In this document: piece by piece, positions 2,355 to 44,946 of the stretch
Layout: every line of letters starts with the position of its first letter
How positions within the stretch are numbered: position 1 is the first letter of the stretch
Assembly (NCBI GenBank): GCA_964621445.1
Contig: CAZUNO010000006.1
Coordinates: forward strand, 22,011-86,010
Length of the DNA stretch: 64,000 bases
Direction: 5' to 3'
Source of the DNA: Candidatus Hadarchaeota archaeon
GTDB lineage: Archaea > CAYQAE01 > CAYVLA01
Made by a program: the position numbers and the translations under genes
The notes under the pieces: generated by a model
The model's input: the letters and a program-made list of their open reading frames with translations, nothing else
Database searches by the model: none
What the model was told of the DNA's origin: nothing

Positions 2355-3572
2355 ATGGATAGCACAGAAGCAATGGCGTTGATCCTTGCTTTTGCCATAT
2401 GGATATCGGCAATAACTACGGTTCAGGGCACGCGAATTAGCCCTAACGGCAGGATTAGGACCATATGCTTTGGGGATATAATCGATCAGACTGGCGGTTA
2501 CAACAGCTATGTGGTCTTTCGTCAGGACCCATCCATTGAAACCACCTTCGTTCCTACTAGACCGGACTATCTCGGCGGCATTGAAAACGCTCTCCGGAAC
2601 ATGAGGGTATACATGCCCAGGACGTATGGAAGCCTGGTCCGATCCTACGACATAGTGGTAAGTAGCGATGCGGACCGGTCGGTGTTTACCACCGAGTGGA
2701 TAGGCTGGATATCGGATTCGGTGAGGGAGGATGGCCTGGGCATTCTGTGGCTAGGAAGCATAGCCCACGAAAGTTTTGTCTCCTGGGAGGGCACAACGGT
2801 TACCGATGTGCTTCCCTGCACACAGGTGGTCACCTCTCTGGGGAAATTCTGGTTGCATGGAAAGACCCTGAGGGTCAGGATATGGCAACCGGAGGAGCCC
2901 TTGATGAAGGCCTTGCCATGGGAGGAATCACCCCCGCTATCCAACCTTAATCTTCAGACCCCGAAATCGGGGAGCGATGTTTGGGCCCGAGTTGACCAGG
3001 GCAATCATCCCCTGATCAGTTTTTGGAACGTGGGGGACGGCGCGGGTCTAAACTTTGCCAGCAAGTTTCCCGGAGGGGTTTCCAGATGGGCCGAGGATTG
3101 GGAGTATTTCCCTCAGGCCATGATGTACCTGGTTTACCGGGTGGCGGAGAAGGACCTCCCGGACGACCCACATCTCTTCAGAGCGGCCATAACCGGGTTC
3201 ATTGAATTCGAGCAGTTCAACTCAATATTGGTCTCGCTAATTTCCTGGGTGGAGAAATTCGGGGGAAGCACGGTCAGGCTTTCGCAGATGGTTGAGGATT
3301 TGGAGGCCGCCCGGATGGATGCCTATAGCCATTACCTGGAGGGAGACATGCAGGCAACCATCGAATCCCTTCGCGAAACAAGGGAACGCCAAATTGAGAT
3401 CCGGGGGGAAGCGGTGAAGGCAAAGGACAGGGCCTTGCTATGGATCTATGTAATCGAGTGGTTCATACTTATGCCAACTCTGATGATATCCGGTTTTGTT
3501 CTCTGGACGCTCATGGTAGAGAAGAGGCTATACAGGGAGGTAGGCCTGTCCAGGTTTTCGCCCGGTGAATAG
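2355..3572 (+). CDS. Family A single-pass surface protein
   Basis: Signal peptide; RVYMPRTYGSLVRSYD; VEKFGGST; tail ALLWIYVIEW...GFVLWTLMVEKRLYREV. Confidence 0.85.
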   Translation: MDSTEAMALILAFAIWISAITTVQGTRISPNGRIRTICFGDIIDQTGGYNSYVVFRQDPSIETTFVPTRPDYLGGIENALRNMRVYMPRTYGSLVRSYDIVVSSDADRSVFTTEWIGWISDSVREDGLGILWLGSIAHESFVSWEGTTVTDVLPCTQVVTSLGKFWLHGKTLRVRIWQPEEPLMKALPWEESPPLSNLNLQTPKSGSDVWARVDQGNHPLISFWNVGDGAGLNFASKFPGGVSRWAEDWEYFPQAMMYLVYRVAEKDLPDDPHLFRAAITGFIEFEQFNSILVSLISWVEKFGGSTVRLSQMVEDLEAARMDAYSHYLEGDMQATIESLRETRERQIEIRGEAVKAKDRALLWIYVIEWFILMPTLMISGFVLWTLMVEKRLYREVGLSRFSPGE

Positions 3573-5794: not shown

Positions 5795-7031
5795 TTGAAG
5801 CTTGCTATAATTCTTGCATGCGCGGTAGTTCTCCTAATCCTTACACCCATCTATGGGGAGAACGGTGAGCGGGCTCTGGACTTCTTTCTACTGGGTGATG
5901 TATCGGGGTGGCCCAACCATCTTGGTGATGATGAGCCGGCAGTGGAGCTGACTCTAGTACCCTGCCGGGCATTCGGCCAGGATATCTCGGACGAGTTCCT
6001 GTTCAGGTGGAGCAGGATATATTTTCCCCGGGGGAAGAGCCAACTGCTTGAATATGACGTTTTGTTCCTTGCCCGTCCCAGGTTGAATTTCTTCACCATA
6101 AATCAGCAGGAAATGATGGTCGATTTTATCGGTACGGGCGGGCGGGTTTCAATTGCTTACCCCTTGAGCCATTACAGGGAGGTACAGGAGCCCTGGATGA
6201 ACAGCCCCATATCGGATACCATGCCCATAGATTTCGATCGTTTCGTGATCGCGGTTCGCGAGGGGCTAGGACAGTGGGGGAGCCGGGGAAAGGGTTTTGC
6301 GGAGTTGGAGTTGGTTTCCGGAATGCCCCCGATCTTCAGCCCCTTTGGGAAAACCGAGGCCTTTTCGGGCCATATATACGAGCAGTTCAGGCCTGCATAT
6401 GCCAAACAGGGAGCCAGCGTTTGGATTCGGGCGGTCAACGGTCCCCCGTTGGAGCCAACTGTCCCGGCTTTCATTTCCTGGGAGTATGGGAAACCAAACC
6501 TGGGGATTTGGGATACAGCCTGGAATTGGCAGGAATCACTGGCAAGTAGCGGGAGAATGGTGGGAATTGATGTTCCTAAACCTCTGCTATCACACAAAGG
6601 GCATGGAGACCATGAATTATGACGATGCGCTGATGAAAATCAGCGTCAAGTCGTCCTTCTCGGATTACAGAAATTCCCTTTCAATGTTTCATAATATTGT
6701 GGACTTCGTTTCTCGGGTGGGAGCAAACACTGCGTCGGCTGACGATGTTATCCTGGAGGGTCAGGAGCGGTATCACCAGGCCGAGAATTTCTATCTGGAC
6801 GGGAATTACGACCAGGCTGACGCCAAGATGGCCGATGCCTTGATGGTTATCTCCGAGGCAATGGATAGGGCCACCAGGGCCAAGGACCGGGCCCTGACCT
6901 GGATCTATATATCGGAGTGGATGGCAACCATGGGCGTGGCCTTGTTTTCAGGTATCGTGCTCTGGTGGCTGATGGTCAGGAGGAGATTGTATCATGAGAT
7001 ACCGACCACGGAGCTGGATAGGTCCGGGTGA
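5795..7031 (+). pseudogene. Family A surface protein split by a frameshift near 6488-6500 (pseudogene or sequencing error)
   Basis: ORF 5795.. has the signal peptide, RIYFPRGKSQLLEYD and AFISWEYG. ORF 6297..7031 continues NQTWGFG...VSRVGANT...ALTWIYISEW...LMVRRRLY. Joined, they give a normal family length of about 410 aa. Confidence 0.8.
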
Positions 7032-7111
7032 GAAGAACGGAGAACAATATATTCAATAATGGCTCACTTTTTTCATCATCGATGCCTGCGAGTTTGTTCC
7101 CTGAAATCGTC

Positions 7112-8359
7112 ATGAAGGCTACCGGCAAGATCCTGGGAGCACAAAATCTTGTCCTGATCATGATTCTCATGCTGGCATTCCCAAGTGCGGAGGCCCAGGA
7201 AACTGAAAACAACTTCATTCTGATAGGTCAGGTTTTTCCCCATGAGTGCCCGGTCCCCGGATGGCTCGAGAAACAGCCGGGATTTGAGTTCATATTGATA
7301 CCGACTGATACCGATAAGCTGGCCCTCGATCAGGAGGCCGCCAAGAGATATGTGAGGCAATACTTCCCAAGGACCAAAACCGATCTATTTGCCGTGTATG
7401 ACTTCGTGGTCATGCCCGATACAAACATCCATCCATTCACCACCACCCAGATAGCCTGGATGGAGGAGGGATTCAGGGAGCACGAGATCGGGGCCTTTGT
7501 GACCGTGGGGGCCGATGTGTCGGGTTCCTACGAAAATGACTGGTTGGATTCCCCGCTTCATGATGTTCTTCCCATAAACCTAAAGGACCAGTACCGCGTT
7601 GGCTCCTACTTCACGATCAGGATAAAGAAGGAGGAGCCACCGGTTCTATCCATGTTTCGCGATAAGGATATAGAGAGCTATGAGGGTAGTTGCCCCTGTT
7701 CCCGAAGTTTTCCCAGGCCGGGAGCGACGACCTGGGCCGAAGCGTCCTACACGGGAACCGGCCTTGTTTACCCCTGGTTGGTTTCCTGGAAATTGGGAAC
7801 GGAAGGGGGTCACATATGGACCGCGGCAGACGACCTGGATCATCAGTGGTGGTGGCCTGGTGGGGTTAGAGTTCAGTCCACGAATCCCTACGCGGGGGAT
7901 GTTTTCATGAATATCGTGTTCTACTCCCTGGGCCGCCCTCTTCCCGAGGATATCTCCCTGATACACATGATCCGCGACCGGTTCGACGTCTATAAGACCG
8001 ATAAGCAGCTTATCATCGGGGTGATAAACTGGGCCGACAAGCTGGGTGCCAATACCGATAAGGCCGAGTCCGCACTCGCCAGGGTGGAGGAGATTCACCA
8101 GGACGCGATTCATAAGTACTCTCAGGGCCAGTACGAGGAGTCGCTTGATGCTCTCGACTCGGCTATGGAGGAGGCCAAGAAGGCACTGGAGGTTGCCTAC
8201 GAGACGAAGAGGAATGCCATGTTCTATATCTACCTCGTTGAGTGGCTGGCAACCACGGGCGCCCTTCTTCTCAGCGGGTCCGTGCTGTACACCTTGATGG
8301 TGAGAAGACGGCTCTACCGTTCTATAGAGACCACAAGACTAGCGAGGCAGGAGGAATAG
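7112..8359 (+). CDS. Family A single-pass surface protein
   Basis: Start moved to ATG 7112 (MKATGK..., signal peptide); RQYFPRT; ADKLGANT; YIYLVEW...GSVLYTLMVRRRLY. Confidence 0.85.
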   Translation: MKATGKILGAQNLVLIMILMLAFPSAEAQETENNFILIGQVFPHECPVPGWLEKQPGFEFILIPTDTDKLALDQEAAKRYVRQYFPRTKTDLFAVYDFVVMPDTNIHPFTTTQIAWMEEGFREHEIGAFVTVGADVSGSYENDWLDSPLHDVLPINLKDQYRVGSYFTIRIKKEEPPVLSMFRDKDIESYEGSCPCSRSFPRPGATTWAEASYTGTGLVYPWLVSWKLGTEGGHIWTAADDLDHQWWWPGGVRVQSTNPYAGDVFMNIVFYSLGRPLPEDISLIHMIRDRFDVYKTDKQLIIGVINWADKLGANTDKAESALARVEEIHQDAIHKYSQGQYEESLDALDSAMEEAKKALEVAYETKRNAMFYIYLVEWLATTGALLLSGSVLYTLMVRRRLYRSIETTRLARQEE

Positions 8360-8362
8360 AGG

Positions 8363-9217
8363 ATGGAGGGGAGCAAGCTCCGCAGTTACCTGGCTATCTT
8401 TCTGATAGTAATCGTGATATCTACATCGCTGACCGCAGTCGCCTGGATTTGGAGGGAGGGGGGAATCCGTAAGCTGTCATTGAGCGGGCCAGATTACATA
8501 TTCCAAGCGGCTCAAGGGACGGCCACCTTATCCCTAACCGTCTCACCCCAGAGCAAGCTCGATGTGCTGGAGTTCCGGTTCCGGTCCCTGGTGGAAAGGG
8601 ACATGTCGGAGCTCAACCTAAACGTCTCGATGGTGCGGGACTTGGAGGACCTAAGATACGCCTGGGCCTCGGTGGAGGATCGCCTGAAATATTTTGATCT
8701 CATCGAGGCAGGGGATTACGTCTCGGTCCACAATGTTTCAATCACAAATGAGGAGGACCTGAGGATGGTTCTTTTCGACTTCGGGAAGTTGTACTCCTGT
8801 CTTTACGATTCAAGGCATGACAATGAGTCCCTGACCTCCTATGCATTCCTGCTTAACTCGACCAACCACATAGTTGGTTGCTTCGAGGGGTATTCGGATT
8901 TCGTGGCCGTGAGGAAGAAGAGAGGGGTCCTGCTGACCAGGAATGACGTCCTGAGGCTAGTCCGCGTCCAATCGGGGGAAGAGGTGGAGGAGTACTACGG
9001 AGATGCTGATGCGGAACCCTCCACTGAGGACCTTTCCCCTTGGGGACAGATAGCCTTTGAACAGGTGGAGACCGATGAACCGTACGGGGTGACCTTGATC
9101 ATCAAGGAGGGAAAGCTATCCACGGGAAGGTTGATTCTTTGTGCGGAGACCTTTGGGGATGGTAGATGGTATCCGGAGTGCTCCGGGTACTGGCTGGTTA
9201 AAACGGAGTTGGACTAG
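8363..9217 (+). CDS. Family B membrane-anchored protein (N-terminal TM), paralog of 55132..55977
   Basis: N-terminal hydrophobic helix; blocks TLSL..., YAFLL...EGYSDF and GQIAFEQV are shared with the paralog. Confidence 0.8.
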   Translation: MEGSKLRSYLAIFLIVIVISTSLTAVAWIWREGGIRKLSLSGPDYIFQAAQGTATLSLTVSPQSKLDVLEFRFRSLVERDMSELNLNVSMVRDLEDLRYAWASVEDRLKYFDLIEAGDYVSVHNVSITNEEDLRMVLFDFGKLYSCLYDSRHDNESLTSYAFLLNSTNHIVGCFEGYSDFVAVRKKRGVLLTRNDVLRLVRVQSGEEVEEYYGDADAEPSTEDLSPWGQIAFEQVETDEPYGVTLIIKEGKLSTGRLILCAETFGDGRWYPECSGYWLVKTELD

Positions 9218-10252
9218 ATGCGTAGGCTCATTATACTGATGGCGATCATTCTCCTGTTTCCGGTGGTTCACTCCGGCTCCGATCCTCTCGTGCTCGTCGG
9301 GTGTTTTGACGGTCAGAGATACCCTCCCATGTTCTGCCCCAATTACACGGGGGAGATAGCTGAGATATCGAGAGAGGCCATAAACGCCGAGCACGGCGAT
9401 GGAATTCAGGTGATGGAGGTGGGCGACTGGTTCTTTCTTCTGGACTCCCTCAACCAGCCCAACGTGATAGGAGCCGTAATCTCGGCCCGGGAGGGTCGCT
9501 ACAATCTTTCGGATCTTAAGCAAGAGGAGCTGATCGAATCATTCAAGGAAGGTCTGGGTTTGGTGGGGTTACATGCTGTTGGTCACTACACCTTCACGGA
9601 GAGAGTTGCCGAAGAGGTCTTTCCCCTAAACGGAACCAAGATCGGCACCGGTGTAATCCACCGAAATGATGTGATTACATCCAGGCATACCCATTCGAAA
9701 TATACCGAGCATCCGGTAAATGAGGGTTCGCCTGATGAGATGGAGATACCCGATTCTGGCCTGGTGTACCATGACCCGGTTCCCGACCAGGGGTGGTGGC
9801 TTCCTGACTCGGGGGAGGTAACAGTTCTCTACACCGCAACCACGGTGAGGGGAGAGGACCAGTTACCATCGATAATTGCCTATCAACATGGATCCGGGAG
9901 GTCGGTCACCTTTGGGGGACTTCGTCATATTGATGCACCAGGCCGCTACAGGCGGGACCCCGGATGGTACAACCACTCGTTAGCCATTCCCGAGGTCAGG
10001 AATCTCATTGCTAGTTCCTTGGTTTACGTGCTGGAACCATTTGCCACTGAGGATGCCCTCCAGGATCAAAGGGATGAAACCGAGCAGTATCTGGAGGAAA
10101 AGCTGGGTGATCTTGAGAGTCAGATTCAAAGAGGGCAGGAGGCGGTTAGAAGACGTGAACGTCAGGTTCTGATGCTGACCGTGGCAATAGCACTGGGTGC
10201 GGTTGTTGCTGTCGCTATCCTAGCCTACTTCGGATTTGTTAAGGGGAGTTAA
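9218..10252 (+). CDS. Family C surface protein: ThuA/class I GATase-like domain, coiled coil, C-terminal TM
   Basis: Signal peptide; GLGLVGLHA and YQHGSGRSVTFGG resemble ThuA-like motifs; C-terminal TM; paralog of 54019..54996. Confidence 0.78.
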   Translation: MRRLIILMAIILLFPVVHSGSDPLVLVGCFDGQRYPPMFCPNYTGEIAEISREAINAEHGDGIQVMEVGDWFFLLDSLNQPNVIGAVISAREGRYNLSDLKQEELIESFKEGLGLVGLHAVGHYTFTERVAEEVFPLNGTKIGTGVIHRNDVITSRHTHSKYTEHPVNEGSPDEMEIPDSGLVYHDPVPDQGWWLPDSGEVTVLYTATTVRGEDQLPSIIAYQHGSGRSVTFGGLRHIDAPGRYRRDPGWYNHSLAIPEVRNLIASSLVYVLEPFATEDALQDQRDETEQYLEEKLGDLESQIQRGQEAVRRRERQVLMLTVAIALGAVVAVAILAYFGFVKGS

Positions 10253-11965: not shown

Positions 11966-14068
11966 TTGACGGGAGAATATCCGGATTTTGAAACCTACCT
12001 GGTTCGGTGGTGGGGAACCAAGGGATCCAAGATGAGCAGACCCATCTACAGGGTAGCAGATATCTATAACGGGAGTGCCAAGATACGTTTTGCGGCCATC
12101 CCCGGTCGTCCCCTGGGCAACTACTCCCTTCCCTACTGGCCCGTAAGGAGCTTCATTTCCTGCATCAATCCACCCGCCGAACTTCCCCAGGTCATTACCC
12201 TGGGTACGAAGGAAAGGCAGGAAAGGATATATTTCCGTAATGGGAGCAAGGCACATTCCCATTCCCTGAGGGAGGATTGGGATGGTATTGATTTTGAGGT
12301 GGCGAGAGGGGAGGATACGGTTGCCCTGAAGGCCACCAATTACGGGAGCGAGAGCCCCATTCTAATCGAAAACTTCCTTTCCCTTGAGGGAGACAGCCCG
12401 AGGGCGGTTTTTCACACCCGTGCGACCAATAAAACTGAGGAGACGATTCCGGGCGCCAGGATGGCGACCAGATTTTGCCAGGATTTCAACTGGAGCCATT
12501 TCGGCCAGTCCTCGGGGGATTATTACTGGGAACTCAAATCAGGTGCCGGCGAATCCAGGTCATTCTACGCGTTTTCCTCCGGAATGAAGCGAGGATTTGA
12601 GTTCCTATCTGCCAAGGATTGCCAGCTAGCATACGAAGTGGAAGGTCCAGGGCACGAGTGGTCGGTTGAACTTTCCCATACCGCCATGGACCTGGCTCCA
12701 GGTGAGTCCATAGGGTATCGATACACGATCTCCTGGCTGGATAGGATTCCAGAATCAGTGAGCAACCGACCTGGCCCGACATCCATCGACCCGGCGGTCC
12801 TCAATTACCGGCGGAAAAGACCAGGGGTTTACAGGAAACCGGAATTGGTTGAGCAGGGGATCGGCATTCAAAACATGTTTGCCGAAATTTGGGTGCCCAA
12901 GGCGAGGGGGCTCAATTTGAGATACGATTTCCCGGAGGGGTTGGAGGACCTGGAAACCCTGGCTGGGTGGGGGTGCAATCTCCTGATAACCGATTTGGGT
13001 GAGGCGGAACAGACCCGGACCATGATCCGTAAGGCACATGAATTAGGAATGAAGGCCTATGTGCAAGGGCGAGGCAATTTTGCATCGGGCCCTCCCCATT
13101 TCGATGAATTAAGAAAGGGCGGATTGAAATCCCCGGAAATTCCGGACGGGTTTGGCCAGGATGAGGATCACTATTACTGGTCCTCGGTTGATCCCCTGTT
13201 TGATTTCAAGGATATTTTCGAAAAAAAGAGGAGTGCAGCGACCCAGGAGGAAAGCGTAAGGTATTGGAGCAGGTGCTTCTTACAGAAGTGGAGGATGATT
13301 CGGGAGGAGGTTAGGGACATAAATCCGGAACCAGGCGTGTGGTTCTACACCCCCACCCCGGGCATCGCCCACGTGGACCCTCTGGATTACTATGACGTAT
13401 TTATGGATGAGGTCGGAAAGCTGGGAGAGGACCTGACCGTATTTCCATTTTATTACGGCGTGGAATACGATCAAGTCCAGTACATGATACGAAGATGGAA
13501 GGACCACGGCCTACCCATGGTGGTATTTCTGCCCATGCGGGATTTCATGACCAGGCCTGGCCAGTTTTTCAGATCCATAACGGCAGCCAGGAGGGGTGGA
13601 GCAGATGGCACCTGTGGATTCTCTTTCAGCGTTAGTGCCTGCGACCCAGGACAGGATTGGCAGTGGAAATCTGTTATGCTGGCGGCGCAGGCCAACTTCC
13701 CGACCCCGGAGATGAGGGCCCTAGTAAATATCGAGGAACCGGCCCGCCTGGTTGAGGCACTCGCAGCAAGGAGATTGGTTTTAGATCGCCGGTTTCCGGA
13801 AAAGGTAGAGACCAGACTGGATGAACTACTGCCAAATGGTGCTGAGAAGAAAGATCACCGGGTTAAGGGCGGGCTTGAGGTCAAGATAAAGGAGGAGGAC
13901 CCGGGTACTCGCATTCCTGCAATTGATTCTGGAAAAGGGATGATCGCCATGAAGGGAGAATCAGTAGTTCTCAGTGGCGGTAGTCAGTGTGCCCTGGACG
14001 CCTCCTACCGCTTACTGGTGAGGTATGCCCTGTTAGCGGAAGCTGAGCTCAGTGGAATCTATTCTTGA
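11966..14068 (+). CDS. Large hypothetical protein, possibly glycoside-hydrolase-like (start may be ATG 12032)
   Basis: 700-aa ORF. Central RGLNL...LAGWGCNLLI...IRKAHELGMKAYV resembles the start of a GH TIM barrel; beta-rich N-terminus. Confidence 0.6.
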   Translation: MTGEYPDFETYLVRWWGTKGSKMSRPIYRVADIYNGSAKIRFAAIPGRPLGNYSLPYWPVRSFISCINPPAELPQVITLGTKERQERIYFRNGSKAHSHSLREDWDGIDFEVARGEDTVALKATNYGSESPILIENFLSLEGDSPRAVFHTRATNKTEETIPGARMATRFCQDFNWSHFGQSSGDYYWELKSGAGESRSFYAFSSGMKRGFEFLSAKDCQLAYEVEGPGHEWSVELSHTAMDLAPGESIGYRYTISWLDRIPESVSNRPGPTSIDPAVLNYRRKRPGVYRKPELVEQGIGIQNMFAEIWVPKARGLNLRYDFPEGLEDLETLAGWGCNLLITDLGEAEQTRTMIRKAHELGMKAYVQGRGNFASGPPHFDELRKGGLKSPEIPDGFGQDEDHYYWSSVDPLFDFKDIFEKKRSAATQEESVRYWSRCFLQKWRMIREEVRDINPEPGVWFYTPTPGIAHVDPLDYYDVFMDEVGKLGEDLTVFPFYYGVEYDQVQYMIRRWKDHGLPMVVFLPMRDFMTRPGQFFRSITAARRGGADGTCGFSFSVSACDPGQDWQWKSVMLAAQANFPTPEMRALVNIEEPARLVEALAARRLVLDRRFPEKVETRLDELLPNGAEKKDHRVKGGLEVKIKEEDPGTRIPAIDSGKGMIAMKGESVVLSGGSQCALDASYRLLVRYALLAEAELSGIYS

Positions 14069-14110: not shown

Positions 14111-14755
14111 CTAGTACTTGTCGGCGCCCTTAAGGGGAAGCTCAACGAGCCAGACATTTCGGTACTTCACCGGGTTTCCGTGGTCCTGAAGGAGCAGTGG
14201 ACCTGGTTCGTCTATCCTATCATCGATTGCTCCGCCGGTTGGCCCCTGAACCTCGGTGTTGTTCTGTATAACCACGCCGTTTTGAAGGACGCTCACCCGG
14301 GCCTGACTCTCGACATTGCCCGAATCGGCCAATCGGGGTGCCTTGAAAATGATGTCGTAGGTCTGCCACTTTAGAGGTGGCTTGCAGGCGTTAACTAGGG
14401 GTGCAAATTGATCGTATACTGCGCCACAATCTCCCCTGCCCGGGACCTCAATGCCGTATGAGTCGAGAACCTGAATCTCGTAACGTCCCTGTAGATAGAC
14501 CCCGCTGTTCCCCTTAGCCTGACCGGTGGCCTCGGGCATGTCCGGTTCCATCCATTCAAGATGAAGTCTGAAATCGGCAAATTTATCCTCGGTAACTATA
14601 TCTCCGGTACCCTTGACCACTGTCATCGTTTCATCGGAGATCTTCCATCCGGCGGCTTCCCCTTCTCGGGTGTGCCAGTTGTCCAAATCCTTTCCGTTAA
14701 ACAGGACCTTTGCCTCCGCGGGAGGCTTCAGGCCCAGCGACATGTCGGAAACCAT
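14111..14755 (-). CDS. DUF1080 / 3-keto-disaccharide hydrolase family protein
   Basis: LFNGKDLDNW, DFRLHLEW, GNSGVY, YEIQVLD, LQDHGNPVKYRNVW. Confidence 0.92.
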   Translation of the reverse strand: MVSDMSLGLKPPAEAKVLFNGKDLDNWHTREGEAAGWKISDETMTVVKGTGDIVTEDKFADFRLHLEWMEPDMPEATGQAKGNSGVYLQGRYEIQVLDSYGIEVPGRGDCGAVYDQFAPLVNACKPPLKWQTYDIIFKAPRLADSGNVESQARVSVLQNGVVIQNNTEVQGPTGGAIDDRIDEPGPLLLQDHGNPVKYRNVWLVELPLKGADKY

Positions 14756-14865
14756 AACTATCCCGGATTGGTGGGTTGGTAGGCTTTCTTAAATGTGAAT
14801 GGCGTTCAGATCTGGGAAAAAGGTTAAGAGCATTACCAAGTGGTTTGGAAGGGAGACAGGTATCA

Positions 14866-16302
14866 ATGCCAAAAACGGTTCGAGAGTCGACGCGGGATAT
14901 CCAGGTCCTGGATCAATGCGATGTGTTGGTTGCCGGTGGCGGCGTCTCCGGATGTGCGGCTGCAATTTCATCAGCTAGGGCCGGGGCGGACACCGTATTG
15001 GTGGAGAGGAATGGGTGCCTTGGCGGAGTGGCCACGGCAACCCTGATGGCCAACATCGGCAACCTCTTCCTGACAGGGAGTGGCAAAAGGGTGATCAGGG
15101 GTTTCGCGGGGGAACTCGTCGATAGATTGGTAGAGGTGGGTGCCGCATCTCCGGGATGGGAACACCGGGATGTACCCGGGTGCGTGATCGATTCCGAACG
15201 GCTCAAGATAGTCCTCTCCGAGATGCTTGAATCCGAGGGGGTCAGGATTCTAACCCATTCACTGGCCACACGTCCCCTTATGGAAGGGAGATCAGTAAAG
15301 GGCGTCTTTGTGGAGAGCAAGTCCGGTAGACATGCCATTCTTTCCGGATGCACGGTTGACGCCTCGGGGGAGGCCGACCTGGCCTTCAGATCCGGTGCGG
15401 AGGTTACCATGGACGGGGGTAGCGCCAGCATTCTGTTCAAGATGGGGAGGGTTGATATCGATGCCTTGGTTGATTTCCTCTCTAGGGACTCGGATGGCTT
15501 CCCTGACGGGAAGGACTGGGTAAAGGACCTTGAAACCTTCGTTTCTAACTGGAAGGAGAGGGGGGTACTATTCTTTCCTCACGGTGGTGGTCAGGAATGG
15601 AGGTTTCTCCAGGATGTCATATCCTCCTCCGGATTCCAGACCCAGGATGGTCCAGCCTATTCACTGGACGCGGTAGGCATGTATGCCCCACGGGGAGATG
15701 GCTGTGTGGTAATCAATTCGAACTTCTACAAAATCGAGAGGCTGGAGATAACCGAGCTTTCGGATTTTGAGCTTCATGCCCAGAAGATGTGCTACAAGGT
15801 GGGGGATTTTCTCAAACGAAATGTTCCGGGGTTCTCGGACAGCTATGTTTCGCATGTGGGAGTGGACCTGGGCATAAGGACCAGCAGAGCAATTGTGGGC
15901 CGTAAATCTCTTCACCAGGACCAGGTCCGGGATACGGATGGCCCGTGGCTCTGTGATGATGCCATGGGGGTGATGCCGGTGCGGGACCCGGAAAGGAAGA
16001 GCGGCGAATTTTTCCGTGACTACACCCATGACGTACCGTTCGGGATCACAGTTCCAATTGGCGTGGATAATCTATTGGTGGGAAGCGCCAAAAGTGTTGA
16101 TACTCAACCAAGAGGCTTGATAAGGGGAATGACCGGGTGCATGATATGTGGGCAAGCCACGGGAACGGCCTGCGCATTGGCCGCTCTCAGCGACGAAAGC
16201 CCGGGTGAGGTGGAGATCAGGGATCTTCAGGAAGCCCTCCTGAAACAGGGAGTCTATCTCGGTGGCCAGGAGAGATTAATGGACCTGGGTCTTGGCGCCT
16301 GA
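14866..16302 (+). CDS. FAD-dependent oxidoreductase (FAD_oxidored family)
   Basis: DVLVAGGGVSGCAAAISSARAG, VERNGCLGG, DASGEADLA, CMICGQATGTACAL. Start moved to ATG 14866. Confidence 0.88.
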   Translation: MPKTVRESTRDIQVLDQCDVLVAGGGVSGCAAAISSARAGADTVLVERNGCLGGVATATLMANIGNLFLTGSGKRVIRGFAGELVDRLVEVGAASPGWEHRDVPGCVIDSERLKIVLSEMLESEGVRILTHSLATRPLMEGRSVKGVFVESKSGRHAILSGCTVDASGEADLAFRSGAEVTMDGGSASILFKMGRVDIDALVDFLSRDSDGFPDGKDWVKDLETFVSNWKERGVLFFPHGGGQEWRFLQDVISSSGFQTQDGPAYSLDAVGMYAPRGDGCVVINSNFYKIERLEITELSDFELHAQKMCYKVGDFLKRNVPGFSDSYVSHVGVDLGIRTSRAIVGRKSLHQDQVRDTDGPWLCDDAMGVMPVRDPERKSGEFFRDYTHDVPFGITVPIGVDNLLVGSAKSVDTQPRGLIRGMTGCMICGQATGTACALAALSDESPGEVEIRDLQEALLKQGVYLGGQERLMDLGLGA

Positions 16303-16309
16303 ATCGGGC

Positions 16310-18172
16310 TCAGTCAACGGGCTCTATTCGGAGAATTAGAGAGGCCTGGCCGTCCTGGACGGGCACGCTGAATAGGCTTCTTTTCACCGGTTGTGAGAAA
16401 TGATCATCCTCCACATCCCTCTCCTCGGTCTTGATTTCGACCTCGCCCTGGGATTCGACCTTAAGGATCCTGCTACCCTCGTCTATAAGTATTGATTTGC
16501 CCGGGGTCTTGGATATATTGCAGAAGCTGTGAACTGGTATTACCATACTTCCCTTCTGACTCTTGGAGAGCAGTTTGTCATGGATAACGATGGACCCCTT
16601 ATCGGTGCTCCTTCGGAAGGATAGCTTCCTGACCAGCCTCTCGATGCCTGCCTCTTCCGGGTAGGCCCGCGTCAAATTCATTGATAGCACGTCCTCATGG
16701 TTTGTGAAGCTCTGCTCCAGGATGGTGGCCCGATGGTCCCTGCCCCTTTCCTGCTGGCATCCGTTTACATGGGGAACATTGTGGAAAGCGGACATTATGA
16801 CCGGCTTTTGATATCTTCCCTCGCCGAAATAGTCCTTGGTGTAGGTTCCCTTGCCAAGGTCGATTATCATTGCCTTGTCATCAAGGGCCACGATGAAGTT
16901 ACCCACATCATTGTGGTTATGGCTCTCGCCGTTATTTCCTCCCTTGGCAGCTAGAACCAAACCTGGTTTTTTAGAGGACTTGGCCCTGCTTATCATCCAT
17001 TGACGACCAGAAAGGTAGACACGTCTCTCGGGCTTCCAGGTTTCCGGGGATGTCTCGGCGGGCATCCAGATTAGATCCCGTATATTGGTAACGTATCTAA
17101 ATGGCTCCAGGTCGTATTGGTACTCCGCGAATCCACGTACGTCAGCGGCACCGGTCTTCTTGGAGAGGTAATGGAGGAGGGGAACGTGGTATCCTACCTG
17201 TTGTGGACAATCGGAGAAGTTAGCAACCGTTTTCCCGGAAAAAGTCACCCTTTGGGGAAATCTGGCTATTCCCCTGAGTTCATCTGCCCTCAGAAGGGAC
17301 AATTTCCCGCCCGTTGCAGATTCCAGTAGATAAGATAGCCAGGCGAAGTTAACCATACCGTAGTTCCAGTAGCTTGCGCCCTCGTCACAGCCGCCGTCAT
17401 TCCCGAAGGAGTCCAGGAAGAGGTTCATGGACTGCATTGATTTCTCGATCATTCTTGCCAATCTATCCCGGTCCCTTAGAAGGATCAGGGCCGAACCCAC
17501 GACCCCGCAGTTACAAACGGCGGCCCAATTGTTGACCTCGCCGTTTCTGCCCTGGCCGAATAGCCAGGGGAAATCATCCCTCTCCAGAAATGGTTTCCAG
17601 CATCTTCTTTTGATCTCGTCCACGACCCTTTCCCTGATCATGGGATGTTCTTCGCAGAGAACTGGGTCCATGACGTGCAGACACTCGGCAAGGGTCAGGG
17701 CCGTTCCGGCTGACACCAGATCTACCCACTGGATGTTCTTGTATTTAGGCAGTTTCGTCCGGCTATGAGCGGGTATCACCCAGCTGCTTTCCTCGCATAT
17801 TGCCCATATTCGATCCATAATGGAGTCAAGAAAAGTGCCGTCTCGACCGGAACACTCGGCCATTACCAGGGTGCGCAAATTCCCGCGTCTCTTTCCGGCC
17901 ATTCCGTCGTGGGGTTGCCTGTTTCCGGTGCGAAAGTAGGAGAGATAGGAGGTTACCGGTATCATCTCAAGGGGTTCTTCAAGCAACCCTTCTGCCCTGG
18001 CCTGAAGGCGATCTCTCTGCAGATCCAAACGCGGGTTATCCAGGAGCAGGTTCCATCCATGTTCATCCGTATAACGGGGTATGGGATCCGAAGGTTCGGT
18101 TTCATTCAGGATCTGGCTTACCTGAGCCTTGTCCGGTTCCTCTAGCATGGAAAAACCAACCTGTGCCCACAT
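16310..18172 (-). CDS. Heparinase II/III-like polysaccharide lyase
   Basis: ICEESSWVIPAH, NNWAAVCN, DGGCDEGASYWNY, KGGNNGESHNHNDVG, SAFHNVP. Confidence 0.87.
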   Translation of the reverse strand: MWAQVGFSMLEEPDKAQVSQILNETEPSDPIPRYTDEHGWNLLLDNPRLDLQRDRLQARAEGLLEEPLEMIPVTSYLSYFRTGNRQPHDGMAGKRRGNLRTLVMAECSGRDGTFLDSIMDRIWAICEESSWVIPAHSRTKLPKYKNIQWVDLVSAGTALTLAECLHVMDPVLCEEHPMIRERVVDEIKRRCWKPFLERDDFPWLFGQGRNGEVNNWAAVCNCGVVGSALILLRDRDRLARMIEKSMQSMNLFLDSFGNDGGCDEGASYWNYGMVNFAWLSYLLESATGGKLSLLRADELRGIARFPQRVTFSGKTVANFSDCPQQVGYHVPLLHYLSKKTGAADVRGFAEYQYDLEPFRYVTNIRDLIWMPAETSPETWKPERRVYLSGRQWMISRAKSSKKPGLVLAAKGGNNGESHNHNDVGNFIVALDDKAMIIDLGKGTYTKDYFGEGRYQKPVIMSAFHNVPHVNGCQQERGRDHRATILEQSFTNHEDVLSMNLTRAYPEEAGIERLVRKLSFRRSTDKGSIVIHDKLLSKSQKGSMVIPVHSFCNISKTPGKSILIDEGSRILKVESQGEVEIKTEERDVEDDHFSQPVKRSLFSVPVQDGQASLILRIEPVD

Positions 18173-26096: not shown

Positions 26097-27161
26097 TCAT
26101 AGTCTATAAGCCCGGGTCTCATTCACCATCGCCAGGTAGTTTTTGACCGGCACATAGTTGGCAACCGAATTCCCGGACCCCACGGCAAATCCTTTGCCAC
26201 CGCAAGCATCTATAACGCTTCTGACGTAACGCCTGATGTATTCCTCCGAGCGCCTTGCGAGGACGTCCATATCTATACCTCCCAGGAGGGCTATATCGTC
26301 TCCCCACAGCTCCTTGGCTTCTGTTATCGGCGTGTGGGAGTCCTTGAAGGAATGTTTTGCATCATATCCGCAGTAATCGATTATCTCATCCATGACCTGG
26401 TGTAGGTTACCACAGGAGTGAAGTATAGCTGGTTTACCCTGGGAATGGACCGCCCTGACCATCTTCCTGTGCCACGGCAATATGAATTCCTTCAGATGTT
26501 TAGGTGAAAGGAGCGTCCCGCTCTGATAACCGAAGTCGTCGCAACAGTTCACGGCACCCACCTCGTCCACCCCGGCTGCCGCCCTGGCAGCAGCGACCAC
26601 TGGTTCCCCTAACTTGGCACAAACGTCCCTCACCAAACCTGGATTTCGGTATAGATTACGACTAAGCGCCTTGACACCCATTATCCTCTCCGCGAGGGGC
26701 TCTTGCAGCCCCACCGTGGAGGCGATGATTTTCATCCCCTCGGGGAGGAACTTGGACATGGAGCTGATCCTTTCCAGCTCGGGGGAACCGGGGTCCGCCC
26801 ACCCAAAGTTCTCGTAGTCCTCCCTGGTCTTAACGACTCCATCCATTGGTGCCCAGCTTCTATACTCCCTGGGAAGGCCTGCCGTGTCGGCGGCCTTCCT
26901 GCCGGGCATACCGCTTCCCTCCTGATGACAGCGGACGCCGGCCGGGACGTAGTCATAACCGAGATTCTTGTAGAAGCGAGCCGTCCTCTCGCTCTGCTTA
27001 TCGATGAGATCCCGGTCATCGTTCTCCGGTATCTCTCCCTCTACGGACTCCACAATTAGTTCATCGATCCCGATTTCGAAAAGGGGGACCCGGCCGGTGT
27101 AGCTCCGGTTGCGAATTGCTCTCAGTAGATGTTCAAATGCCGGTGGTGGGGGACAGGACAT
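26097..27161 (-). CDS. Uroporphyrinogen decarboxylase / MtaA-CmuA family protein
   Basis: DDFGYQSGTLLSP, ILHSCGN, LLGGIDMD, GSGNSV. Confidence 0.88.
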   Translation of the reverse strand: MSCPPPPAFEHLLRAIRNRSYTGRVPLFEIGIDELIVESVEGEIPENDDRDLIDKQSERTARFYKNLGYDYVPAGVRCHQEGSGMPGRKAADTAGLPREYRSWAPMDGVVKTREDYENFGWADPGSPELERISSMSKFLPEGMKIIASTVGLQEPLAERIMGVKALSRNLYRNPGLVRDVCAKLGEPVVAAARAAAGVDEVGAVNCCDDFGYQSGTLLSPKHLKEFILPWHRKMVRAVHSQGKPAILHSCGNLHQVMDEIIDYCGYDAKHSFKDSHTPITEAKELWGDDIALLGGIDMDVLARRSEEYIRRYVRSVIDACGGKGFAVGSGNSVANYVPVKNYLAMVNETRAYRL

Positions 27162-33228: not shown

Positions 33229-34470
33229 TCAGCTCTCCGCCATCTTGGTGGCCTTAACGGTCCTGTACAATCTCCTCCTGACCATCAGGGACCAGAGGAT
33301 GAACCCGGATATGAAGAGCGTGGATACCGAGACCAGCCATTCCACAATGTAGACCCAGATTAGCGCCTGGTTCTTGACCTCGGTGGCCACCCGTTTTGCC
33401 TGGGGAAAGCGATCCAAGGCAGATGCCATGACTTCTTCGCACTTCGGGAAATCCTGTTCCATGTATTGTTCGATGGCCTGTTCGTAGAAATCCTCGATTT
33501 CCCATATTTCATCCCTGATTCTCTGGGTATTGGCACCGAATTTGTCCACGAAGTCCTTTACCGAATAGAGAACTGCGATACGGTTCCTGTACTCGATGAA
33601 ATACGCCTTAAGTCTGTGGAAAACCTCGACGTCCTCTATGAGATCCCTCTTGGTGGAGTACAGGAAGATGTTCACCAGCATGTCAGGGCCATAACGGTGT
33701 GAAGTTGGGCTCTTCGAGTATTGTATCAGGGGCCCGGGTACAAAGCCGCCACAGGTCAGGGTTCTCCCGCTCCCGTAATCCCAGGCTATGAGGAAGGGGA
33801 CCCTTCCCTTTCCGGGGAAGTTCCCGATTTGCCAGGCCATGGTCCGGGCCGTTTCCCGGGGTATCACCAAACGGGAGGCGGCCGTATACTGTTTCTCGAC
33901 ATCGAAGGGGATGAAGGGGGTGAGAACGGGATCCGGGAAATCGGGATCTATGACCACCTTAAAGGTGTTGGTTGCGCTTTCTCCTCCCGCCTTTTCGGCG
34001 ACGGCCGGAGCGTCATTTGGGAAAGCCTTTTGAGTCTGGGAGTTGGCCCAGGCTCCGTGGATCTGGGAAACTATGCTGAAAACGCTTCCATCATTTAGCC
34101 CTCCAGCCCCGCCCTCTATGGCATCGTGCATCCATTTATCCTGGGTGGAGCTGAAGAGGTTGTATTCGGTTGCGGTAAGGTAGAGGAAGTCGTATTGGCG
34201 AAGGTCCTGGTAACTTCGGGGGAAATAGAGCCTGATGAATTTCTTTGCATCCTCCCGGCTGACTATACCTGTATCCCTGGATGGCACGGTGATATATTCC
34301 ACTAATGGTTCGTTGTCCAGGTAAAACTGGGCGGCTCGGAGCTGTCCAAAATGCCCGGTTATCAGAATATTGATCTTCTCATTGGAGCCAACCCCACTGG
34401 GAACGAGGAGGTGGAGGGCTAGCACTGATAATAGTGTCAGGAAAAGGGCCCTTCTGCCCATGTTTTCCAT
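33229..34470 (-). CDS. Family A single-pass surface protein (start may be ATG 34461)
   Basis: Signal peptide; RLYFPRSYQDLRQYD; VDKFGANT; ALIWVYIVEW...GFILWSLMVRRRLY. Confidence 0.86.
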   Translation of the reverse strand: MENMGRRALFLTLLSVLALHLLVPSGVGSNEKINILITGHFGQLRAAQFYLDNEPLVEYITVPSRDTGIVSREDAKKFIRLYFPRSYQDLRQYDFLYLTATEYNLFSSTQDKWMHDAIEGGAGGLNDGSVFSIVSQIHGAWANSQTQKAFPNDAPAVAEKAGGESATNTFKVVIDPDFPDPVLTPFIPFDVEKQYTAASRLVIPRETARTMAWQIGNFPGKGRVPFLIAWDYGSGRTLTCGGFVPGPLIQYSKSPTSHRYGPDMLVNIFLYSTKRDLIEDVEVFHRLKAYFIEYRNRIAVLYSVKDFVDKFGANTQRIRDEIWEIEDFYEQAIEQYMEQDFPKCEEVMASALDRFPQAKRVATEVKNQALIWVYIVEWLVSVSTLFISGFILWSLMVRRRLYRTVKATKMAES

Positions 34471-41790: not shown

Positions 41791-43722
41791 ATGGTTTATT
41801 TGCTCGAACCCGATGGTCCTGGCCCTCTAGTTGAGGATGTCTGGCCCAGCCTTTTCTACTCCGAGGAACGTCTGCCTGAGATGAAGAGGAAGATCAACGA
41901 ACTGAAATGGGCCAAGAAAACATTTCGTAAAATGTTGAGGGAAGCGGATTCCCTCCTGGACGAGGAACCGGTTCTGGCAGATGGAAGGCCTGGATGGCGG
42001 CACGATTTCTACTCTCCAGTTTCCGCTGAACATCTCCTGTTCGATTCTCGGAGAAATGGAGGGTTCAAGGACCCGATCACGGGGACAAAATCTTATAGCC
42101 AGGATCAATACTCGGCTTGGGTTCTACTCCAGCACGAACGCACATATCGTATTATGCGAAGCCTTTCCTTCCTGTACAGGTTAACCGGGAAGGGACAATA
42201 CCTGTCCTGGGTCATCAAAGGTTTGGATGAGGCGGTTAGATTCTTTGACAATCCGCCAAGAAACCACGAGAGATACGGGGCAATTTACTTCCAACCCCTC
42301 TACGATGCACAGATTATGCTTCTCCTTTCCAATATATATCGCCTCGTCGGTGACCAATATCAGGAGGATCGGCGGGAATCCATAGAGAGGGTTTTTGAGA
42401 GTGGATCCGTCAGTCTCCTCAGGTATGTAAAAGGCGCCAGGGTGCATAATATTACCTGTTACGTTTCGGCGGCCATTGGCACCCTTGGAATAATTCTGGG
42501 GAGGGAGGACTGGATTGATATGGTCCTTTCGGAGAAGGATGTGGGGCTTAGAGGTCTTCTAGGGAAGGGATTGAGGAGAAGAGAGGAAAAGGAGCCGGAT
42601 GGATTCTGGTATGAGGGGACCACCTTCTACCACCTATATGCCATGTTCCCTCTCATATCCCTGTTTGAGATGGCTAAAGCCAAGGACATCGACGGTGAGG
42701 AGCTGGAAAATATGAAAAGGTCCTTGAGGGTCATGTTCTGGGCGTTAATTAGAATTGCTGGGCCGGACTTCGAACTGCCATCCCTGGGGGATCTGGGGTC
42801 TTCCACCATAAATGATCTCCGTCGGTGGCATCACCTTTACGAGTACGGGGCCGGAATGCTCGATTCCGGACTCTCCGGGTATCTTTCTGCCTTTCTTCAA
42901 AGCCAACAGGACCGTGGAATGTCGGCGTTGGCCTTTGGACCCGATGATCTATCGCCGCCGGCCTCCCCGGAGTTCAGGGGAGTGATGAAGGACAGCGGCC
43001 TTGCGGTTTTAGGATCCGACAGCAATGACGGAGATTTCCGCGTATTATTCAAACCTGGACCTCATGGAGGCGGACATGACCACCTGGATAAGCTCCAAGT
43101 GATCCTTAATACCTTTGGTAGTGGAATAGCCCCCGATATAGGTACATCCGGATACTCTCTAAGAAAATTCAAGAAATATTGCGTAAGCACTCTGGCCCAT
43201 AATACGCTTATGGTTGATGATGCCAACCAGGATAGGGTATCGGATTCCGATATCCGGTTGGGCAGGGATGGGTGCCCGGTCGGAATTGTACGTGACGCCT
43301 ACCCCGGAGTAGAGATGAAACGGGTTGTTTGCCTTGATCCGCCACACCTATATCTTGAGGACAGCTTAAGGTCAGAGGATAGCCACATCTACTCCTGGAT
43401 ATTTCACGCCAGGGGATCATTGGAGATGACTGGTGGGGAGAACAATGCTTCCCATAACTCGTCACTGCCCAAGGATGGAATTTTTTCATTTCTAACCGAA
43501 CGCCGTTCGTTTGGACCGCTGAGGAAGGCGGAGGCATTTTGGCACTCGTCAGAGGGCATCGATCTTAGTCTGAGGATGTCCTGGGATTCGGATTTCGAGG
43601 TGATCACCGCTAAAAGTCCAAATAATCCTCTAGATGGCTACCTGGGAACTCTGATAGCACGAGGGAGGGCCGAGAAAGTCGGTATCAAATCCGTATTCAC
43701 CGTTAGCAGGGACGGCAACTGA
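41791..43722 (+). CDS. Heparinase II/III / oligo-alginate lyase-like protein
   Basis: HNIT, DGFWYEG...YHLY, GPHGGGHDHLDKL, PDIGTSGY, STLAHNT. Confidence 0.87.
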   Translation: MVYLLEPDGPGPLVEDVWPSLFYSEERLPEMKRKINELKWAKKTFRKMLREADSLLDEEPVLADGRPGWRHDFYSPVSAEHLLFDSRRNGGFKDPITGTKSYSQDQYSAWVLLQHERTYRIMRSLSFLYRLTGKGQYLSWVIKGLDEAVRFFDNPPRNHERYGAIYFQPLYDAQIMLLLSNIYRLVGDQYQEDRRESIERVFESGSVSLLRYVKGARVHNITCYVSAAIGTLGIILGREDWIDMVLSEKDVGLRGLLGKGLRRREEKEPDGFWYEGTTFYHLYAMFPLISLFEMAKAKDIDGEELENMKRSLRVMFWALIRIAGPDFELPSLGDLGSSTINDLRRWHHLYEYGAGMLDSGLSGYLSAFLQSQQDRGMSALAFGPDDLSPPASPEFRGVMKDSGLAVLGSDSNDGDFRVLFKPGPHGGGHDHLDKLQVILNTFGSGIAPDIGTSGYSLRKFKKYCVSTLAHNTLMVDDANQDRVSDSDIRLGRDGCPVGIVRDAYPGVEMKRVVCLDPPHLYLEDSLRSEDSHIYSWIFHARGSLEMTGGENNASHNSSLPKDGIFSFLTERRSFGPLRKAEAFWHSSEGIDLSLRMSWDSDFEVITAKSPNNPLDGYLGTLIARGRAEKVGIKSVFTVSRDGN

Positions 43723-43752: not shown

Positions 43753-44946
43753 TTGCTGGGGAGAGTTTCAGGCATTCTTTGCATCCTGCCACTCCTCCTA
43801 ACCCCTTTGTGCCTAGGGAGGGTGGGTCCTGGTGGAGTGATTCGAACAATCTGTTTTGGGGATGTGGTGGATCAGTACGGTGGCTTCAATTCCTATGTGG
43901 TCGTAAGAAATGATCCGGCAATTGACACTACCCTGGTGCCCACCAGGCCAGGGTACCTGGGTTCGGTTGAGGCGGCACTGAGGAATATGCGGATCTACAT
44001 GCCAAGGAGCTATCAGAACCTAATCGATGAACAGGACCTGATAGTTACCAGCGACACTGATCGCGGCGTGTTTAGTAGCCAATGGATCGACTGGCTTGCA
44101 AGATCGGTAACTGATGGTGGGCTTTCTCTTGAGTGGCTTGGTAGCATTAAAAGCAATAATTTCGAGAGCTGGGAGGGAACCACCCTCGCCAACATAGCAC
44201 CGGTCAGGCCGGGAGGACAGCTGGATCTAAGGGGGTCTTTCAAGCTAATCATCCAGGACAGGGATGAGGAGCTGATGAACGCCTTGCCCTGGGACAAGGC
44301 ACCCCCACTCCTCAGGCTCAACACGCAAATACCGAGGGGAGAGGGAGAGGAGGTATGGGCAACGTCAAACACTCCGAGAGATTATCCTTTCCTCACCTAT
44401 TGGGAGATTGGTCAGGGATCTGTGCTATGTTTCGCGACCAAATTCCCAAACGGACTCGATCTGTGGGTTAGGGATTGGCCATATTTCCAACAGTCAATGA
44501 TCTATATGGTTTACAGGGCCTCCGGAAAGGACCTGCCCAGCGATCCTTCCCTAATGCAGCACATATACTCCCTCTTCTTCGAATACGGGGAAACGGAATC
44601 CACAGTGTTCTCGGTCATCTCATTCGTGGAGGATTTTGGTGGGCAGGTTCAGGGACTTCACCGCAGAATGGATGAGATGAGCGATATGAAAATTAGGGCA
44701 GATAGGGCATACATGGAAGCAAGATATGATGAGTGCGTTGAAATAATGACTGAGATTGGAGCCGAGCAAAATTCAATAATGGAGGCGGCCCTGGAGGCGA
44801 GGGATTCTGCCCTCCTCTGGGTTTATATAATAGAATGGTGTGCGGTCAGTGGGGCTTTACTGATGGCCGGATTCTTCCTATGGGCGGTCATGATCCGTCG
44901 CAGGCTCTACAGGGAGGTCCGCACAACGAAAACTCACGAACGATGA
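43753..44946 (+). CDS. Family A single-pass surface protein, closest paralog of 2355..3572
   Basis: IRTICFGD...VPTRPGYLG...ALRNMRIYMPRSY; ALLWVYIIEW...GFFLWAVMIRRRLYREV. Confidence 0.86.
   Translation: MLGRVSGILCILPLLLTPLCLGRVGPGGVIRTICFGDVVDQYGGFNSYVVVRNDPAIDTTLVPTRPGYLGSVEAALRNMRIYMPRSYQNLIDEQDLIVTSDTDRGVFSSQWIDWLARSVTDGGLSLEWLGSIKSNNFESWEGTTLANIAPVRPGGQLDLRGSFKLIIQDRDEELMNALPWDKAPPLLRLNTQIPRGEGEEVWATSNTPRDYPFLTYWEIGQGSVLCFATKFPNGLDLWVRDWPYFQQSMIYMVYRASGKDLPSDPSLMQHIYSLFFEYGETESTVFSVISFVEDFGGQVQGLHRRMDEMSDMKIRADRAYMEARYDECVEIMTEIGAEQNSIMEAALEARDSALLWVYIIEWCAVSGALLMAGFFLWAVMIRRRLYREVRTTKTHER

Follow-up and report, generated by a model that had tools for sequence, protein, structure and literature searches.

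Introduction

Bt1761, the surface glycan-binding protein (SGBP) of the Bacteroides thetaiotaomicron levan utilisome (8aa2 chain G), joins Ig-like domains to a ThuA-like head in a single lipoprotein chain, which belongs to the bacterial outer membrane and is docked on SusC. Here we describe a gene cassette from a Candidatus Hadarchaeota archaeon that encodes comparable parts, an Ig-like protein (family B) and a ThuA-like head (family C), together with a second kind of head (family A). The cassette lies at positions 5795-10252 of a 64,000-nt stretch of contig CAZUNO010000006.1 (positions 22,011 to 86,010, forward strand), called the window in what follows. In contrast to the one-chain arrangement of an SGBP, with Ig-like spacers followed by a glycan-binding domain, B and C are separate genes; the Ig-like protein and the head (C or A) are separate chains with their own transmembrane (TM) anchors, in an archaeon that has no SusC/D, and they have no sequence similarity to Bt1761. 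Our preferred reading, to which we give a probability of roughly 0.45, is that B is the centre of heteromeric surface binding complexes, probably for glycans; the pairing, the binding and the N-glycosylation of B are what we infer.

The individual heads also have known relatives. The closest at the sequence level to the A head is PF07090 (GATase1_like), whose solved members (2gk3, STM3548; 3soz, STM1381; 3rht) are labelled cytoplasmic or uncharacterised. Family A goes beyond PF07090 in having a signal peptide, a helical stalk, a near-invariant C-terminal TM segment with a tail, and about 150 paralogs per genome. Among ThuA-like proteins (1t0b, 4jqs/4pxy, 4e5v), rhizobial ThuA acts with ThuB inside the cell, whereas C is predicted to be extracellular and anchored to the membrane by its stalk helix. 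CBM87 of Aspergillus fumigatus Agd3 (6nwz) is a domain of a secreted fungal deacetylase, without a stalk, an anchor or an Ig-like partner. In the portion of the Agd3 report consulted (PMC7229062), the N-terminal domain of that enzyme, the founder of CBM87, is given as most similar to 3RHT and 4JQS, and the model of C1, the family C protein of the cassette, aligns to the same two structures. The GIFT-domain proteins (the IFT52 N-terminal domain, 5fmr/5fms; GldG of the GldAFG ABC system; OST48) were also compared, and no GldG-type Pfam match was present in the 25 A and 10 C proteins scanned. The sampled part of the literature on PF07090, DUF1355 and GATase1-like proteins yielded no archaeal family, and nothing relevant was found in the literature on ThuA-like surface proteins of archaea, on ThuA, ThuB and 3-ketotrehalose, or on sulfatases and polysaccharides in Hadarchaeota.

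Architecture of the cassette

The open reading frame (ORF) map of the window places four co-directional (+) genes at 5795-10252, in the order A1, A2, B1, C1. A1 (5795-7031, +) is a family A gene, with a GATase1-like head, a helical stalk, a C-terminal TM segment and an RRRLY tail, and is broken by a frameshift. A2 (7112-8359, +) is an intact family A gene; its longest ORF begins at 7028, and the likely start is ATG 7082 or ATG 7112, both of which lie in front of the signal peptide. B1 (8363-9217, +) has an N-terminal TM anchor (residues ~5-31) and an Ig-like beta-sandwich ectodomain, with four N-glycosylation sequons. C1 (9218-10252, +) has a signal peptide, a ThuA-fold head (residues ~21-275) and a long helix (278-341) that provides both the stalk and the C-terminal TM segment. 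The gaps are 3 nt between A2 and B1 and 0 nt between B1 and C1, with GGAGG or GGAG motifs just 5' of the B1 and C1 starts. The spacer that follows C1 (10253-10442), AT-rich and 190 nt long as read from the sequence, is likely to be the end of the transcription unit.

The A-A-B-C order put forward in a preliminary description of this DNA is borne out by this arrangement, with the caveat that A1 is split, and A2-B1-C1 has the spacing of an operon, as proposed there. Hydropathy also agrees with the topology of that description: in A and C a signal-like segment at the N-terminus is paired with a TM segment at the C-terminus, B has a single TM segment, at its N-terminus, and the bulk of all three proteins is predicted to be extracellular.

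Family membership does not depend on the window copies alone. A2 and the family A proteins of a second cassette in the window, A3 and A4, match one another at E 1e-49 to 1e-62 in BLASTP, and the weaker matches of B1 to B2 (E 5e-4) and of C1 to C2 (E 2e-8) are made solid by genome-wide hidden Markov models (HMMs). The window copies served as the starting point for these HMMs, which were then iterated over every ORF of 90 aa or more in this genome (G000; 3.2 Mb in 89 contigs, with the window at C6:22011-86010 and a full-length match to the archaeal small-subunit rRNA model at 1462 bits). They identify 153 A, 17 B and 10 C ORFs, the paralogs being very divergent, at 15-25% identity. The copy-1 cassette of family A, B and C genes is genuine.

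Linkage and conservation of the cassette genes

The association of the three families is seen throughout the genome, though not in the form first supposed. On a crude gene map of G000 (2940 ORF genes), B lies directly beside A in 10 of 17 cases, against 204/2762 (7.4%) for other genes (binomial p 6e-8), and all ten C genes lie directly beside a B. C and A themselves are never directly adjacent (0/10). Three related genomes (G001-G003) hold 23-41 B matches and 13-25 C matches each. There, a B is found no more than 300 nt from 44 of the 55 C matches (order B>C in 37, C>B in five, divergent in two) and at 355-1703 nt from another five, the remaining C matches being mostly fragments or loci at contig ends.

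When all B loci of G001 were mapped with the G000 HMMs, the full-length B genes of the two genomes numbered 46, with A only beside 18, C only beside 12, both beside 11 and neither beside five. The A-B adjacencies in these two genomes are co-directional and in the order A>B in 20 of 29 cases, with gaps of -8 to +59 nt or overlapping ORFs. The canonical order is A>B>C, but A>B and B>C are the units met most often, and B is the shared element. Since most B genes have A only or C only as a neighbour, and C is never directly beside A in G000, B is the common partner, and A-B-C is one arrangement among three that recur.

The cassette is conserved between genera. In G001, which belongs to another genus (g2), an ortholog of A2-B1-C1 keeps the same order (L033:13739-16998; 57/45/48% identity, A2 to C1). 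In a tree of the 46 B genes (IQ-TREE quick), 13 of the 17 B genes of G000 have a single G001 sister with an identical partner context, B1 (sister L033:15073-15936) and B2 included. In 7 of these 13 pairs of orthologous loci the flanking non-family ORFs have no match while the cassette genes do, and both window cassettes are among the seven; this comparison used about 4 kb on each side of the G001 loci and crude ORF calls. The G001 contig with the A2-B1-C1 ortholog also carries a second, paralogous triple, and each gene of one triple has its closest relative in the other, so that A-B-C is able to duplicate as a unit. The distance matrices of neighbouring genes are correlated, with r 0.58 for B and adjacent C and r 0.66 for B and adjacent A, and 0/2000 shuffles gave values as high. 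Such a correlation is one of co-inheritance and not by itself of contact.

These counts bear on the proposal of the preliminary description that the cassette encodes an obligate three-component surface machine whose energising partner is encoded elsewhere. The A>B>C order with its minimal gaps, the conservation of the triple in G001 and its duplication there as a triple, and the presence of both A and C beside 11/46 B genes are what such a machine would lead one to expect. However, the 30/46 B genes with only A or only C beside them do not fit an obligate trio, C is a homolog of A (see below) rather than a third kind of part, and no C in G000 is beside an A without an intervening B. There is also no recurrent ATPase or channel gene within four genes of the 17 B loci; beside the cassettes, as among their products in the preliminary description, no ATPase or multi-pass membrane protein recurs. 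We therefore regard the three-part machine as improbable. The cassettes are a B-centred family of two- and three-gene surface units, in which C is a ThuA-like cousin of A.

The heads of families A and C

The A profile matches 2gk3 (E 1.5e-16), 3rht (E 2.8e-15) and 3soz (E 5e-15) in the PDB. PF07090 GATase1_like is matched by 7 of 25 A proteins (best 3.6e-18); A2 by itself gives no match. The most conserved part of family A is the TM segment with its tail, at a mean column identity of 0.48 against 0.24 for the head, and its sequons are depleted, at 0.07 per 100 aa compared with 0.36 expected from shuffles. In family C a signal peptide and an alpha/beta head are followed by one long helix, which contains the C-terminal TM segment, and by a short tail.

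A structure model of C1 (26-sequence alignment; pLDDT 89.5, pTM 0.83) has the ThuA-type alpha/beta fold. The highest structural comparison score is with ThuA-like 1t0b (18.5; rmsd 3.1, 205 residues aligned), followed by ThuA-like 4pxy/4jqs (17.2) and 4e5v (16.7). The GATase1-like structures 3rht (16.2), 3soz (16.1) and 2gk3 (15.9) come next, then the IFT52 N-terminal domain (14.8), Agd3 6nwz (14.3), the model thus also having the fold of CBM87, and the levan-utilisome chain 8aa2_G (13.9). Matches were obtained by Foldseek as well. In sequence the ThuA signal is weak: Pfam and NCBIfam scans of the A, B and C queries gave nothing above cut-off, C1 scoring 23.1 bits with PF06283 ThuA, below the gathering cut-off of 33.4, and only 2 of 10 C members match that family at E<=0.1 (best 7.6e-7).

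The preliminary description had treated the three families as independent. Profile-profile comparison overturns this for two of them: the C and A heads match in hhalign with 95.9% probability (E 5.6e-9, 187 columns), and with 95.3% (E 2.2e-8) when independent alignments that include genus g2 are used. On these profiles, the two heads are distantly homologous. No relation of B to A or C was found by profile-profile comparison.

Catalytic class I glutamine amidotransferases have a Cys-His-Glu catalytic triad. The invariant or near-invariant columns of A include G39, P56, R82, P86, R87, D97, W116 and P154, and those of C are P23, P81, F109, G112, G117, F135, P217 and G227. Neither Cys nor His occurs among the conserved columns of A or C, the triad is missing, and glutaminase-type activity is therefore not expected. 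Judged by the C1 model, the folds of known function that come nearest to the C head are those of the non-catalytic glycan binders Bt1761 and CBM87, which would make glycans the most likely class of ligand. By analogy with these, glycan capture is the most likely role of the heads, a view that we hold with modest confidence.

Sequons are moderately frequent in family C, at 0.79 per 100 aa against 0.44 expected. One of them, at a G-N-x-T near residue 140 of C1, is semi-conserved, in 16-20 of the 26 sequences.

Family B

The B proteins have a short basic N-terminus, a hydrophobic helix of ~24 residues with a conserved D-R...G...S-T pattern, and an ectodomain of ~250 residues that forms an Ig-like beta-sandwich. 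The TM region is the best conserved part of B, with a column identity of 0.28 compared with 0.18-0.22 elsewhere. Sequons are abundant in family B (1.35 per 100 aa, with 0.53 expected), a pattern opposite to the depletion seen in family A. Judging from these sequons, B is probably N-glycosylated. Semi-conserved sequons are seen near residues 165 and 207 of B1, in 29/46 and 20/46 sequences per 6-column bin.

B has no assignment in Pfam or NCBIfam, and its best ESM Atlas scores, 0.76-0.77, are below the useful range. In Foldseek, B finds the archaellins 8cwm (probability 0.95) and 8qx4 (0.91), owing to its long hydrophobic helix at the N-terminus and the beta-sandwich behind it. This raises the idea of B as a subunit of the type IV pilin or archaellin kind, cleaved by prepilin peptidase and assembled into a filament carrying A or C. 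The structural TM-scores of these matches are just 0.23-0.24. In a class III signal motif the Gly/Ala cleavage site is immediately preceded by a basic residue. In B the N-terminus reads D-R-x-L-x-G before the hydrophobic helix; the basic residue stands several positions before the Gly, and the residue preceding the Gly is hydrophobic in the aligned sequences. With no Pfam pilin match in any of the 17 B proteins either, a pilin-like B is hardly credible.

A model for B-centred surface complexes

We propose that the small operon is a conserved unit made up of an Ig-like, N-terminally anchored and probably N-glycosylated B together with one or two head-stalk-anchor proteins of class-I-glutamine-amidotransferase-like fold, A with a GATase1_like head and C with a ThuA-like head, both heads lacking catalytic residues. 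B (N-in, C-out) would pair in the membrane and at the surface with A or C (N-out, C-in). The resulting heteromeric complexes would share B as a subunit and present a non-catalytic head for binding. Glycans would be the most likely class of ligand, the Ig-like plus ThuA-like build being that of the Bacteroides SGBP, here split over two chains. Physical pairing is suggested by the gene order, the topology, the conservation and one gene fusion. In that fusion, P0047 (639 aa), C is followed by B, with a short basic loop between the C-terminal TM segment of C and the N-terminal TM segment of B. This is where such a loop would be expected if C ends inside the cell and B starts inside it, and the fusion is a hint of pairing.

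The same data could be read as a set of co-regulated but independent surface proteins, for example a variable cell coat or a repertoire facing viruses or predators, which form no specific complex. The ubiquity of A genes (31% of all genes have an A, B or C gene at most 5 kb away) and the great divergence of the paralogs would suit such a repertoire, as would the restriction of the families to one lineage. A, B and C were found only in family f1, in four of the five genomes of this phylum in the collection; B and C are missing from G004, the single genome of the sister family, A was not found in 16 other archaeal genomes searched, and the B profile recovers 129 cluster representatives among 1.84 billion proteins. 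Proteins acting separately would not, however, need gene junctions that are tight or overlapping, or cassettes that outlast their flanks in 7/13 ortholog pairs. Nor would they lead one to expect a natural C-B fusion that is compatible with the topology, or a B family whose TM segment is better conserved than its ectodomain. We consider independent action unlikely, while allowing it a real chance of being right.

Several observations weigh against B-centred complexes. Common descent by itself would also account for the shared synteny and the correlated trees. A neighbouring B is found for only 10 of 151 A genes, and in an A tree (FastTree, 120 rows; 33 A ORFs of <330 aa left out) the B-adjacent A genes form no clade (8 changes; 27/1000 shuffles as low). 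With so few A proteins having a B of their own, most A would act alone or share B. The anchor of A is invariant and the helix of B conserved, which makes sharing of B among A proteins conceivable, though this is speculation. The TM segment of C is poorly conserved (0.21 column identity), unlike that of A with its tail, so that a common rule for docking in the membrane is not evident. The C-B fusion is one of the 129 B representatives, comes from one 3.7-kb contig and could be an error. Finally, the genes surrounding the cassettes are no clear guide to a carbohydrate role: sulfatases are within 5 kb of A, B or C in 22/46 cases against the 31% background (p 0.01, uncorrected), while Gfo/Idh/MocA (14/34 within 5 kb, p 0.12), TIM-barrel (p 0.38), URO-D-like and ABC genes show no significant enrichment.

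A further B-containing protein, P0063, is known from a single sequence on a 13.6-kb contig and has a C-terminal part of ~240 aa, which we take to be glycerophosphodiester-phosphodiesterase-like from a reading of its sequence.

Genomic context

G000 contains 47 sulfatase, 41 URO-D-like, 35 Gfo/Idh/MocA and 32 xylose-isomerase-like TIM-barrel matches, carbohydrate-related expansions that are large for a 3.2-Mb archaeon. DNA with this sequence is labelled as coming from microbial mat and hypersaline lake metagenomes. The window itself also has GH127, acetyl-xylan-esterase-like, heparinase II/III-like (16310-18172 and 41791-43722), DUF4855 and 3-keto-disaccharide hydrolase (PF06439; 14111-14755) genes. 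An ORF of 700 aa without a Pfam match (11966-14068) lies next to the PF06439 gene and a PF12831 FAD oxidoreductase gene (14111-16302 for the two). Of the three URO-D-like genes in the window, one directly follows C1 (10443-11534) and the others are at 26097-27161 and 61958-63058; URO-D-like genes flank two other B loci as well (L005 and L013).

An all-vs-all BLAST of the 108 non-family ORFs within four genes of the 17 B loci gave six small groups: xylose-isomerase-like TIM barrel (4 members), Gfo/Idh/MocA (4), URO-D-like (3), sulfatase (2), ABC-2 permease (2, in tandem) and a 779-aa protein with a weak GH20b signal (2). As the enrichment of such genes is weak or absent, we do not count the cassettes among defined polysaccharide-utilisation loci.

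The ThuA fold of C, together with these neighbours, could point to an extracellular sugar-oxidising system of the ThuA/ThuB type, in which C (and A) act with nearby Gfo/Idh/MocA and TIM-barrel enzymes. Gfo/Idh/MocA genes are directly beside B at C13:28293 and C13:69958, TIM-barrel genes are near two loci, and the 3-keto-disaccharide hydrolase gene of the window would fit the same chemistry. The compartments do not match, however: the Rossmann domains of the neighbouring Gfo/Idh/MocA proteins begin at residues 5-10, which leaves no room for a signal peptide, so these enzymes would be cytoplasmic while C is outside. Moreover, the family has no conserved Cys, His or acidic candidate residues, its ThuA score is below the Pfam cut-off, and neither enzyme group is significantly enriched near the cassettes. 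Such an enzyme system was rejected on the weak enrichment and the missing signal peptides, and we consider it very unlikely.

At the locus L004 (G000:C13:43274-48384) and at the orthologous G001 locus L016, genes for an ABC ATPase and two ABC-2 permeases are followed immediately, on the same strand, by an A>B pair. This arrangement recalls GldA/F/G with a GIFT-fold accessory protein. In the genome as a whole, only 1 of 15 ABC-2 permease matches is beside an A.

The second cassette and other family A genes of the window

The preliminary description noted that the three families recur together at 54-58.5 kb. The families are indeed the same, but the layout is not: C2 (54019-54996, -), B2 (55132-55977, +), A3 (55995-57209, -) and A4 (57290-58534, -) do not form one operon, because B2 is on the opposite strand, divergent from C2 and convergent with A3. 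In the B tree the sister of B2 is in G001 L023, which shares the layout C(-) B(+) A(-). The C2 and A4 orthologs are in L023 (52% and 61% identity, respectively), whereas the A3 ortholog (60%) is on another G001 contig; the A that adjoins B in L023 is a different paralog from A3. Since the A3 ortholog does not sit beside the L023 B, the A slot beside a B can, it appears, be refilled by another paralog.

The window has three further family A genes. One (2355-3572, +) is just 5' of copy 1 and has a PF07090 match at E 4e-5, along with a tblastn match. The others are at 33229-34470 (-) and 43753-44946 (+), where tblastn with A queries gave matches at C6:55242-56414 and C6:65832-66941, respectively.

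The frameshift in A1

A1 is read as two overlapping ORFs, 5795-6622 and 6297-7031. At the frameshift site (6489-6493, +), two bases are absent relative to a related population: the DNA contigs X3 and X4, which come from a second study and a ~95% identical population, have an additional base after 6489 and another after 6493. With both bases in place, coordinate arithmetic puts the ORFs that start at 5795 and 6297 in a single frame. The contigs X1 and X2, from two runs of one study, match the window. X3 has a separate 1-nt deletion at 6159, which X4 does not share. A programmed frameshift is ruled out by the uninterrupted frame of the related population; because that population keeps the frame open, A1 is a recently frameshifted gene.

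The closest A1 paralogs in the genome have 50-68% identity (tblastn) and make up a young subgroup, and no A1 ortholog was found beside the orthologous G001 cassette (best 26%). On these comparisons A1 is a lineage-specific, frameshifted addition, and the conserved unit is therefore A2-B1-C1. Related strains have a 1-nt indel at 7067, 5' of the two candidate ATGs of A2. The divergence of the X3 and X4 contigs from the window is uneven, at ~1% across A2 (7379-8033) and ~4-5% across A1, B1 and C1, few contigs being involved.

Biological significance

To our knowledge, little has been learned of the ways in which archaea that lack an outer membrane recognise polymeric substrates and keep them at the cell surface. 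The lineage studied here spends several percent of its genome on one family of stalked, enzyme-like but non-catalytic heads. To these the cassettes add a conserved Ig-like partner, B, and a second, ThuA-like family of heads, C, in stable operons.

A broader possibility, which we regard as doubtful, is that the cassettes are the archaeal counterpart, differently built, of the front end with which bacteria bind glycans at their surface. Some 150 GATase1-like heads without sequons and 10-25 ThuA-like heads, every one having a stalk and an anchor to itself, would be combined with 17-41 glycosylated Ig-like B proteins through a two-helix membrane hairpin, providing for combinatorial capture of (sulfated) polysaccharides in hypersaline mats, and the system would have evolved independently of the Sus-like systems. 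If the pairing and the glycan binding are true, the cassettes would be defined two- and three-gene units through which a 150-copy orphan family becomes tractable, and the Ig-plus-ThuA-like design would be a case of convergent evolution in Bacteroidota and Archaea.

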